Shown: piece by piece, positions 28,227 through 29,855 of the stretch
Numbering within the stretch: the first letter of the stretch is position 1
Layout of the letters: every line of letters begins with the position of its first letter
Source: Escherichia phage EC.P1
Length of the DNA stretch: 64,000 nt
Reading direction: 5' to 3' (one strand)
Sequence record: PQ657772.1
The notes under the pieces: model-generated
The model's input: only the letters and a program-made list of their open reading frames with translations
The model's database searches: none
Told to the model about the DNA's origin: nothing
Position numbers and translations under genes: made by a program

Positions 28227-29855
28227 TTAAGACTCCACTACTACGTTAGTCCATACACCATTGACTAATTTTTGTGTATATCTCCAACTATAACCTTCAA
28301 CGTGTGTACCAGAACTCCCATTTACGGAAATAAACAACCCATCAAGCGTAGCACCTTCTGGTGCATAGATCCAAGAAGAATCAGGAACACTTCGCGTAGA
28401 TGTTCTTTTACTTAAACGAACATCTTGTACAGCACCCAGTGTTAAAGTTACGTTGCCGCTTGCATCAGCGTTGTTACCGTTAATAGATCTGACGATGTTT
28501 TTACTAGCAACAGTTGCTGTGTTTCCAGAAATAGACAATGATGCACCAGTTACTGATGGAGCATAAAGTACACCAGAAGAGTTAATTGTAACTTCAGAAC
28601 CACCATTACTTCTCAAACGTAATGTATTTGTTGATGAACTGTGATAAATTGCTGCACGTTCAGTAGTTCCTGCCGCGTTACGGAAGTAAAGTACTAATGA
28701 AGTATCATTCGAACGAATTGTTGCACTGTTTGCGATACTCAATGAACCAGACATTGTATCACCAGTTTTAAGTACATAACGGGTGTTTGCAACTTTTTCA
28801 CTCAATGCAACGTTTGACTCTGCAATGTTATATAAGTATGCCACATTAAAGTGTGGTACGTCAATATTGCTAATTCCGTGGCTGTGTGCTTGACCACTAC
28901 CAACAGTATTCGTAGAACCACTGAAACTATGCACGTGATCAGGTGCTTCGTTAATGTTATTAATTACAGTTGGGATTCCGTTGTCGTTACTGGATGTTAA
29001 CGCATTAAGACCACTTCTGTCCATACCTTTTAGTGCTTGGCTATGACCATGACGACCAGCAGCACCAGTAGTTCCACTGAAACTAAATGAGTGCGGTGGA
29101 AGTTGAGCAATTGATATCGCAGTACCACTAATTGATGCACTACTTGCAATCACACTATCAGTTTTAGTTACGCCTGATGTGGTAATACCTTTCAAGTATG
29201 CTTCTTGGTTAAGATTTGGAACTTGTTTTGTGATTGTACCATTTTCACCATCCCATGTCCACCACATTCCATCAGCAAAACACCAACCGTCAGAAGTTTT
29301 CCACGGAGAACCTTGTGAACCATTACGACCACTTTGACCATTGGTCACACCAGACATCTGTTCACGAATACTAGCAACAGTTTGTCCAGAAGTCAATGAG
29401 TACTGGGTAATTGCACCAGGCTTCATTGAAGTATAAAGACCTGTTGGGCCAGTACCGCTACTTGATGGAATAGGGAATACGATATTTAAATTCGTACCAC
29501 TAATGCTCGCACTTGGAACAGCACTACTACTATATGTTACTGTTTCAACTTTTAAATTCAGTTTACGGTTCACTTCATCGAGTGAAATACGGATTGGTTC
29601 AAGAATTGTATCAGTATCGTATACTGCAATCCAACTTGTCCCGTTGTGGTATTTTAACACCAACTCATTTCTATCAAATACCATAGCACCTTGCTCACCT
29701 GCTGGCAATGCCTGTACTGGTAAAATGACAGAAGATGAATTAAAACGAATAGGTCTTGGATTAGTTGGTGTACCACCAAGCACTATTAGTTCTAAAGATC
29801 CATTAGCACCAGTACTAGTCATAGTATCCAGTGGGTTATTAAAACTTATGCTCAT
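28227..29855 (-). CDS. tail fibre / receptor-binding protein
   Basis: Gly/Ser/Thr-rich, repetitive; three HxH boxes (GRHGHSQ, PDHVHSF, QAHSHGI) like T4 gp12/gp37 metal-binding motifs; late promoter and AAAGGGA RBS upstream. Confidence 0.6.
   Translation of the reverse strand: MSISFNNPLDTMTSTGANGSLELIVLGGTPTNPRPIRFNSSSVILPVQALPAGEQGAMVFDRNELVLKYHNGTSWIAVYDTDTILEPIRISLDEVNRKLNLKVETVTYSSSAVPSASISGTNLNIVFPIPSSSGTGPTGLYTSMKPGAITQYSLTSGQTVASIREQMSGVTNGQSGRNGSQGSPWKTSDGWCFADGMWWTWDGENGTITKQVPNLNQEAYLKGITTSGVTKTDSVIASSASISGTAISIAQLPPHSFSFSGTTGAAGRHGHSQALKGMDRSGLNALTSSNDNGIPTVINNINEAPDHVHSFSGSTNTVGSGQAHSHGISNIDVPHFNVAYLYNIAESNVALSEKVANTRYVLKTGDTMSGSLSIANSATIRSNDTSLVLYFRNAAGTTERAAIYHSSSTNTLRLRSNGGSEVTINSSGVLYAPSVTGASLSISGNTATVASKNIVRSINGNNADASGNVTLTLGAVQDVRLSKRTSTRSVPDSSWIYAPEGATLDGLFISVNGSSGTHVEGYSWRYTQKLVNGVWTNVVVES

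Follow-up and report, generated by a model that had tools for sequence, protein, structure and literature searches.

A T4 gp37/gp12-type collar-needle module with HxH boxes is probably embedded in the short tail fibre of a 121Q/RaK2-like jumbo coliphage

In phage T4, the tip of gp37 (collar D10, needle and tip D11; PDB 2XGF) contains seven Fe(II)-His6 sites, and its chain carries HxH boxes at 883, 915 and 929 on one side of the needle and at 966, 980, 989 and 998 on the other, i.e., seven boxes for the seven reported iron sites. In gp37, as well as in R-pyocin fibres and in the P2 and phi92 spikes, HxH residues from three chains form an octahedral His6 iron site, and gp12 has zinc at the equivalent site, possibly as a preparation artefact (PMC6116203). 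At its tip, the gp37 chain reverses direction, which makes the needle a six-stranded barrel (PMC6957217; PMC12609058). Its residues H929 and H931 are iron-binding and essential in T4, and they are buried and needed for folding (PMC6957217); the same module is contained in the Bas63 fibres (PMC12609058). Here, we analyzed a tail fibre gene with three HxH boxes located on the minus strand, at positions 28227-29855, of a 64,000-nucleotide stretch of Escherichia phage EC.P1 (record PQ657772.1; the whole stretch is hereafter called the window).

The RaK2 ortholog of the encoded protein, gp098 (S2-8 in phage K64-1), is a virion adsorption protein, and antiserum against it lowers plating efficiency (PMC10253068). 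Immunogold labelling located gp098 mostly on particles with contracted tails, at the baseplate, and its authors proposed that it is a gp12-like secondary receptor-binding protein (PMC10253068). According to the same authors, AlphaFold2 (AF2) failed on the N-terminal 370 residues, and the C-terminal part was likened to gp34 (PMC10253068). Neither ‘HxH’ nor ‘histidine’ occurs in the text of that paper (PMC10253068).

With regard to its origin, nucleotide and protein similarity show that the source phage is a 121Q/RaK2-like E. coli jumbo myophage. Over a 20-kb stretch that includes the fibre gene, the DNA shares 98-99% identity with that of phages Ecwhy_1, BF17, WPEC3 and fEgEco12, while the identity of the fibre protein to its counterparts in these records is 98-99% as well. 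The limits that an earlier sequence-only reading had given to the gene proved to be exact, with one ATG-started open reading frame (ORF) on the minus strand, and its assignment as a tail fibre was upheld by an end-to-end match to phrog_13229 ‘tail fiber protein’ (E 3.6e-247, aa 1-538), by the annotation of the protein as tail fibre in the near-identical phages, by the adjoining Caudo_TAP gene and by synteny with RaK2 gp098. In particular, the fibre gene lies between the major capsid and DNA polymerase genes in the window as well as in fEgEco12, RaK2 and phAPEC6, and the neighbourhood in RaK2 follows the same order of major capsid gene, fibre gene, small ORF and DNA polymerase gene. A Pfam scan of the fibre protein gave no domain above threshold, the sole sub-threshold match being YmaF at aa 306-334.

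RaK2 gp098/K64-1 S2-8 shares 51% identity with the window protein across 87% of its length, with the same domain order, and one homolog in our set (P0088) is 99.8% identical to RaK2 ORF098 and to S2-8. The homolog search returned 142 proteins, of which the best 120 were used; in these, as in the 131-member family alignment, aa 1 to about 470 are shared, after which the C-terminal tips change. In the phAPEC6 record (MK817115; L005 3501-5099), the fibre ortholog is unannotated, with only a 150-nt ORF (gp221c) called inside it, and it therefore could not show up in the published mass spectrometry (MS) structural proteome of that phage. In the CMSTMSU record, the gene was matched in four pieces across four ‘hypothetical proteins’.

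Taking the evidence described below as a whole, we consider it quite probable, as one joint statement, that this gene encodes the short tail fibre of a 121Q/RaK2-like jumbo coliphage, a trimer of the baseplate type, that its residues 140-345 form a diverged and shortened collar-needle module of the T4 gp37/gp12 type, and that this module would hold three metal ions. Part of the evidence comes from a HMMER profile of aa 140-372 (alignment A2), which was run against 1.84 billion representative proteins. Outside the family, two kinds of matches were obtained, namely to the generic fibre motif YVLKxGDTMTGxL and to the HxH region. The latter (aa ~230-340) corresponded to the C-terminal parts of many small proteins, with E-values from 1e-8 to 1e-4, and these distant relatives carry the Pfam domains Collar (PF07484) and Gp10_C (PF21939). 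Their motifs are PxGxIxxW, GWxLCDG, PDLRGRFxxG, LTxxQIPSHxHTFSGTTSxxGxHxH, a variable insert, GxHxHTFSGTTxxxGSGxxH(xH) and PPYYALAYIMK; in the same order, the window protein shows PGAITQYSL, DGWCFADG, VPNLNQEAYLKG, ISIAQLPPHSFSFSGTTGAAGRHGHS, a stretch of 35 aa, DHVHSFSGSTNTVGSGQAHSHGIS and NIDVPHFNVAYLYNIA. As read from the alignments, the HxH offsets are also equal in both, with 14 residues on the descending strand, on which box 1 lies, and 17 on the ascending strand, which carries boxes 2 and 3 with conserved spacing. Matches to two giant proteins (P0135 and P0257) were discarded, given that they end in the generic YV.KsGDTMTG motif and have no HxH in the matched region.

Profile-profile comparison by hhalign joined the family profile A2 to a profile built from the Collar and Gp10_C relatives (A4) with 99.1% probability and an E-value of 6.6e-19 over aa 227-345, and the collar part alone was aligned with the collars of the distant relatives at 83.8% (E 7.9e-6). 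When compared with the PDB, A4 in turn matched the PVC fibre 9QGO (2.9e-16), the Pa223 fibre 9NXK (6.6e-16) and the T4 gp37 tip 2XGF (2.6e-12), and further matches included SU10 (7Z47), Bizionia C24 (6OV6), T4 gp12 (1PDI, 1OCY and 5IV5_O) and T4 gp10 (2FKK and 5HX2). Against gp37 residues 785-1026, hhalign gave A4 a probability of 97.8%. The resemblance to the gp37 tip and gp12 noticed in the sequence-only reading is thus probably homology rather than mere likeness, leading from A2 through the Collar/Gp10_C relatives to 2XGF, gp12 and gp10, and it agrees with the Foldseek results presented below. A short tail fibre of phage phiTE (9CUY), of similar length and collar position, was set aside as a comparison, since the model covers no more than its 92 N-terminal residues and a collar does not come up for discussion.

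The boxes themselves were then considered. All three strings singled out in the earlier reading (GRHGHSQ, PDHVHSF and QAHSHGI) are present, although two of its descriptions had to be corrected: the boxes are not about 40 residues apart but 38 and 17, and the region is not particularly rich in Gly, Ser and Thr, which make up ~34% of aa 230-345, a value equal to that of the whole protein. The three-box pattern is more than chance. This follows from 100,000 shuffles of the protein, which gave a mean of 0.20 HxH and a probability of 5.9e-4 for three or more, from the clustering of 8 of the 11 His residues within aa 255-335, from a count over the 61 window ORFs that reach 100 aa, in which no other ORF contained more than a single HxH, and from conservation, as the boxes persist in proteins with as little as 46% overall identity and also in remote homologs. 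That the protein is 34% Ser+Thr+Gly could be taken to favour an origin of the boxes as a by-product of a low-complexity composition of Ser, Gly, Thr and His. Nonetheless, this explanation, which also has the shuffling probability and the uniqueness among the window ORFs against it, is refuted by the conservation of the boxes, and we consider its probability negligible.

Conservation was quantified in the alignment of 131 family members at four positions, i.e., boxes 1, 2 and 3 and a further position, box 0 (aa 255-257), which is degenerate in the window protein (H255-S-F257). Only three patterns of presence (1) and absence (0), in the order of boxes 0 to 3, were found: 0111 in 82 members, including the window protein; 1001 in 48 members, including RaK2 gp098, GAP32, CBB, XbC2 and phages of Yersinia and Erwinia; and 1111 in a single member. 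Box 3 (H324 and H326) is universal, and boxes 1 and 2 occur only as a pair, which about two thirds of the members possess. Where both are lacking, box 0 is carried instead, and the lost boxes mostly read xxD and D/N-x-R. In the 1001-type homologs, box 0 reads P[ED]HYHG in place of PPHSF and is followed by a larger insert of ~65 aa. Such clean either/or behaviour is what would be expected of paired structural sites and not of loose low-complexity sequence.

Structure prediction provided a second route. The full-length AF2 monomer had a mean predicted local distance difference test (pLDDT) score of 76, with low confidence at aa 247-333. In Foldseek, its sole significant match was the Mu tail fibre-Tfa structure 5yvq_A (E 3.4e-5, prob 1.00, 206 columns), for which the aligned part of the model was not reported, and T4 gp34 was a weak match; the low TM-score to the Mu fibre is due to the model being a monomer. 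A second model, restricted to aa 140-372 and built from an alignment that included the distant relatives, reached a pLDDT of 83.3 and a predicted TM-score (pTM) of 0.67, with values of 90-98 in the collar and 94-95 in the strands adjoining box 0 and box 2. The top Foldseek match of this model was the Pa223 fibre 9nxk_A (E 7.7e-4, prob 0.99), followed by 6OV6 and, weakly, T4 gp10. In a library of viral models, it retrieved proteins named ‘phage tail collar domain’, ‘MdpB’, ‘Gp10 C-terminal domain’ and ‘baseplate’, eight of them at E<=1e-3, with T4 protein 37 at E 0.24. Hence, the same families are recovered by two independent routes, profile comparison and Foldseek. ‘Tail collar / MdpB’ proteins of giant eukaryotic viruses (Fadolivirus, Terrestrivirus and Cafeteria roenbergensis virus) also matched the aa 140-372 model.

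A series of observations weighs against the collar-needle assignment. Neither the protein sequence nor the profile of the full-length family retrieved a relevant chain from the PDB, and Pfam Collar PF07484 (at E<=1) and Gp10_C gave no direct match to the fibre protein. The direct hhalign comparison of A2 with gp37 was weak (53%, E 1.3e-4), even if it pairs H255, H269 and H307 with gp37 H915, H929 and H966, and that of the full-length family profile with T4 gp12 was null; the link to gp37 and gp12 is therefore transitive. In the second model, aa 270-299 and the distal loop stay at a pLDDT of 53-61, and the Foldseek TM-scores are low (0.24-0.27), a usual outcome for a monomer model aligned to chains of intertwined trimers. 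Furthermore, the module occupies aa 140-345 of 542 and is followed by 197 residues, so it does not form the C-terminal distal end of the protein, and in ~50 of 53 distant relatives, as well as in the solved relatives discussed here, it is C-terminal or nearly so. Finally, a needle placed on the three-fold axis is not easily reconciled with the trimeric rod that would follow it towards the C-terminus.

Despite these points, the collar-needle assignment suggests the following way of working, in which metal binding, the identity of the metal, the trimer geometry and the role in folding and rigidity are what we infer from homology. The chain would exit the collar and descend as a beta strand bearing H255 and box 1, turn in the 35-residue distal loop and ascend with boxes 2 and 3, after which the strand NVAYLYNIA would close the collar. 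Once three chains are assembled, the three copies of any one HxH box would arrange six imidazoles about the three-fold axis and so create an octahedral site. Each such site would take a single metal ion, most probably Fe(II), following the precedent of gp37, or possibly Zn(II), as seen in the gp12 crystal. With boxes 1, 2 and 3, a trimer would thus hold three ions along a short needle that protrudes from the collar, with boxes 1 and 2 as a distal pair of sites and box 3, together with box 0 in other lineages, as the collar-adjacent site. The arrangement of boxes 1 and 2 as a distal pair would explain both their joint loss and the occurrence of box 0 and a bulkier, gp12-like insert in the lineages without them. 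The ions would act as registration points and rivets that stiffen the six-stranded needle, not as catalytic centres. Past the module, the chain would continue through the neck and the beta shaft to the exchangeable receptor-binding tip, whose folding would be started by the tail fibre assembly chaperone (Tfa).

Two other explanations of the conserved histidines had to be weighed against a gp37-like needle. The module could be a receptor-binding domain with a gp12-type globular head and a single structural zinc site, the extra boxes having other roles. This would be in line with the gp12-like character of RaK2 gp098, which sits at the baseplate and becomes accessible only once the tail has contracted (PMC10253068), with the 1001-type homologs (RaK2, GAP32 and CBB), in which P[ED]HYHG resembles the gp12 sequence SYHKHAGG and precedes the ~65-aa insert, and with the matches of the intermediate profile to gp12 and gp10. 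The single HxH that gp12 has right after the collar is indeed found in these homologs, but it is absent from the window protein, whose box 0 reads H-S-F and whose other boxes fall on needle sites of gp37 in the alignment, their offsets being gp37-like and the loop short (35 aa). Moreover, the gp12 metal itself may be a preparation artefact (PMC6116203). Since the gp12 and gp37 modules belong to one superfamily, the difference is one of degree, and a gp12-type head appears unlikely for the window protein.

A non-metal role of the histidines, such as pH sensing, binding of lipopolysaccharide (LPS) phosphates or an enzymatic centre, seems very unlikely to us. His-rich surfaces can bind anionic sugars, but the strict H-x-H, a box 3 that never varies, boxes 1 and 2 that are lost only as a pair and a spacing identical to that of solved His6-metal families argue for buried axial sites, and the gp37 counterparts are buried and essential for folding (PMC6957217). 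With regard to the enzymatic variant, neither an HExxH or HxHxDH motif nor a match to an enzyme family was found in the fibre protein.

Returning to the gp37-type module and its internal position, two metagenomic proteins have several collar-needle modules in tandem on one chain, three in P0155 (1039 aa) and two in P0228 (399 aa), and thus internal modules exist outside the gp098 family. An internal needle with a further rod behind it may also have been the cause of the failed structure prediction for RaK2 gp098. More speculatively, gp098-type fibres might be two-ended devices in which the internal needle and its 35-residue loop serve as a second functional contact or trigger site, an idea that we consider rather improbable. 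If true, this site would project from the collar and could bind a conserved receptor or a baseplate partner, while the Tfa-dependent C-terminal tip would supply strain specificity; this architecture is undescribed for any solved fibre, and it would explain the failed prediction for gp098. By position, the loop is the equivalent of the OmpC/LPS-binding tip of gp37. The expectation that it would be a hypervariable distal loop of the host-range type was only partly borne out: in the entropy profile of the 131 members, it ranks with the least conserved segments when genera are compared, but the per-segment identities show 97% conservation among E. coli phages, which makes a second receptor contact possible without indicating it.

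The C-terminal tip behaves differently. After aa ~470, the homologs carry Gp53-like_C (PF21882), Peptidase_S74 (PF13884) or other tips, and in comparison with 121Q-type phages the tip is 52-56% identical, in contrast to 84-97% in the N-terminal, collar, loop, closing-strand and neck segments and 65-85% in the needle strands and shaft; to the fibres of unrelated coliphages, it is ~35% identical. On this sequence evidence, the tip is an exchangeable specificity element. The unrelated fibres are tail fibres of coliphages of 135-145 kb, matched by 28230-28530 on the minus strand (aa ~440-540), and equal matches were obtained to ‘Campylobacter phage’ records of the same size, apparently from the same coliphage group.

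Folding of the tip is presumably started by the Tfa encoded next door. The Tfa gene starts 2 nt past the fibre stop, and its product matches PF02413 with E 5.8e-9 (36.6 bits, above the curated cutoff of 22.1) and phrog_136 with E 4.7e-34. Phages fEgEco12 and phAPEC6 annotate the gene at the same position as Tfa, and RaK2, which has a Gp53-like_C tip, has no Tfa gene after its fibre gene. The presence of Tfa thus tracks the tip type, being found in the window phage, fEgEco12 and phAPEC6 and not in RaK2. In RaK2 (L004 4001-6177), the fibre gene is directly followed by the small ORF099, which corresponds, by position only, to the window ORF at 27301-27606.

The features of the locus are compiled in Table 1. 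According to the AF2 model, aa 1-139 consist of small beta elements and a helix at aa 81-100, ending in a low-confidence Ser/Gly linker (aa 131-140), and this part is presumed to attach to the baseplate, by analogy with the RaK2 immunogold data. The collar-like domain, with its diverged motifs PGAITQYSL, DGWCFADG and VPNLNQEAYLKG, has an extra segment of ~30 aa inserted at aa 155-185, and the HMMER alignments of P0208, P0219, P0235 and P0238 begin at its GW motif. The loop is the positional equivalent of the gp37 tip subdomain, as deduced from the gp37 box positions. The closing strand has its counterpart in ‘ENRPPYYALAYIMK’ of the distant relatives and ‘NIAFNYIVR’ of gp37, and hhalign aligned NVAYLYNIA with PPYYALAYIMK of the relatives; the first AF2 model predicted a strand at aa 335-343, and the second gave aa 330-349 a pLDDT of 87-90. 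In these monomer models, as well as by its motifs, the chain is predicted to double back, with the final hydrophobic strand re-entering the collar. The neck motif matches repeats in giant fibre proteins.

Table 1. Positions of the tail fibre gene, its predicted parts and the adjoining chaperone gene in the window
Feature	Positions	Strand	Basis or remark
Tail fibre gene, 542 aa	28227..29855	minus	Single ATG-started ORF; ortholog of RaK2 gp098 / K64-1 S2-8
N-terminal part, aa 1-139	29439..29855	minus	AF2 secondary structure and pLDDT; conserved in family
Collar-like domain, aa 140-245	29121..29438	minus	pLDDT 90-98; hhalign, HMMER, Foldseek
Predicted descending needle strand, aa 246-272 (AQLPPHSFSFSGTTGAAGRHGHS)	29040..29120	minus	Carries degenerate box 0 and box 1
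HxH box 1, H269-G-H271 (GRHGHSQ)	29043..29051	minus	Aligns with T4 gp37 H929/H931
Distal loop between boxes 1 and 2, aa 272-306, 35 aa	28938..29042	minus	pLDDT 53-61
HxH box 2, H307-V-H309 (PDHVHSF)	28929..28937	minus	Aligns with gp37 H966/H968
HxH box 3, H324-S-H326 (QAHSHGI)	28878..28886	minus	Invariant in 131/131 family members
Predicted closing strand back to collar, aa 331-345 (NIDVPHFNVAYLYNIAE)	28821..28865	minus	Counterparts in distant relatives and gp37
Neck, aa 346-372	28740..28820	minus	Helix, then generic fibre motif YVLKTGDTMSGSL
Beta-rich shaft, aa 373-469	28449..28739	minus	Foldseek: Mu tail fibre 5yvq_A, weakly T4 gp34
Exchangeable C-terminal tip, aa 470-542	28230..28448	minus	Homologs switch tips after aa ~470
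Tail fibre assembly chaperone (Tfa), 172 aa	27707..28225	minus	Pfam Caudo_TAP PF02413, phrog_136

Two nuclease-type ORFs on the minus strand (29897-30220 and 30619-31548), probably homing-endonuclease insertions, lie in the interval from the major capsid gene (31630-32805) to the fibre gene. One of them encodes a 107-aa T5orf172/MUG113 (GIY-YIG-like) protein. The product of the other is endonuclease-like (309 aa, phrog_681/559) and contains repeated Cys pairs; in RaK2, the corresponding place is taken by ORF095, an ‘endonuclease’. On the plus strand, an ORF of at least 2286 aa (57141-64000) runs off the window end and encodes a giant protein without HxH boxes.

The gene family and the HxH metal principle are both already known, and the feature is in this respect of an ordinary kind. 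What would be gained is an annotation, since the previously unmodelled central 200 residues of RaK2 gp098 and of the 121Q short-fibre family would correspond to a shortened gp37/gp12-type collar-needle module, which lends support to the view, already published, that gp098 corresponds in function to T4 gp12. A further prediction concerns recombinant expression, which was unsuccessful with full-length gp098: Fe or Zn may be required, along with Tfa in the case of the coliphage version. Mutational targets are provided by H324/H326 and by the pair of boxes 1 and 2.

Among the systems with which the window fibre can be compared, the R1 and R2 pyocin fibres and the P2 gpV and phi92 gp138 spikes share the octahedral metal site built on the trimer axis by HxH from three chains (PMC6116203), but they have different folds (shaft and beta-helix apex) and a single site each, and no homology to them is claimed. 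In Mu (gp49 and Tfa gp50; 5YVQ), P2 (H/G) and lambda (Stf/Tfa), a Caudo_TAP gene lies directly downstream of the fibre gene, as it does here, and the C-terminal 200 aa of the window fibre resemble the Mu fibre (Foldseek E 3.4e-5, with the aligned part of the model unreported). The fibres of Pa223 (gp60, 9NXK), PVC (9QGO), Bas63 (STF and LTF), SU10 (7Z47) and Bizionia C24 (6OV6) belong to the Collar and HxH-needle family. In those of Pa223, PVC, Bas63, SU10 and Bizionia C24, the module is C-terminal and forms the distal tip, unlike in the window fibre, and the Pa223 and Bas63 papers liken their fibres to the gp37 tip (Bas63: PMC12609058).

The gp37 tip itself shows the same motif order, i.e., collar, descending HxH strand, short tip, ascending HxH strand and closing strand; its offset from 915 to 929 is the same 14 residues as in the window fibre, and the gap between the innermost boxes is 34 residues (with the receptor-binding tip at 932-959) versus 35. 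In contrast to gp37, the window fibre has three boxes instead of seven, its module is internal instead of C-terminal, its direct similarity is marginal and its chaperone is a lambda/Mu-type Tfa next door, whereas gp37 uses gp38 and gp57A. RaK2 gp098 differs from the window fibre in its 1001 pattern (boxes 0 and 3), its larger insert and its Gp53-like_C tip. The receptor-binding domain of T4 gp12 (1H6W/1OCY) belongs to the same collar superfamily; no direct similarity to the window fibre was detected, and gp12 has a large globular head, a C-terminal module and one HxH, the zinc site at His445/His447, which corresponds to box 0 of the family, without further boxes. Its role in the virion, however, is probably shared by the window fibre, namely that of a baseplate-bound fibre deployed at contraction, as shown for RaK2 gp098.

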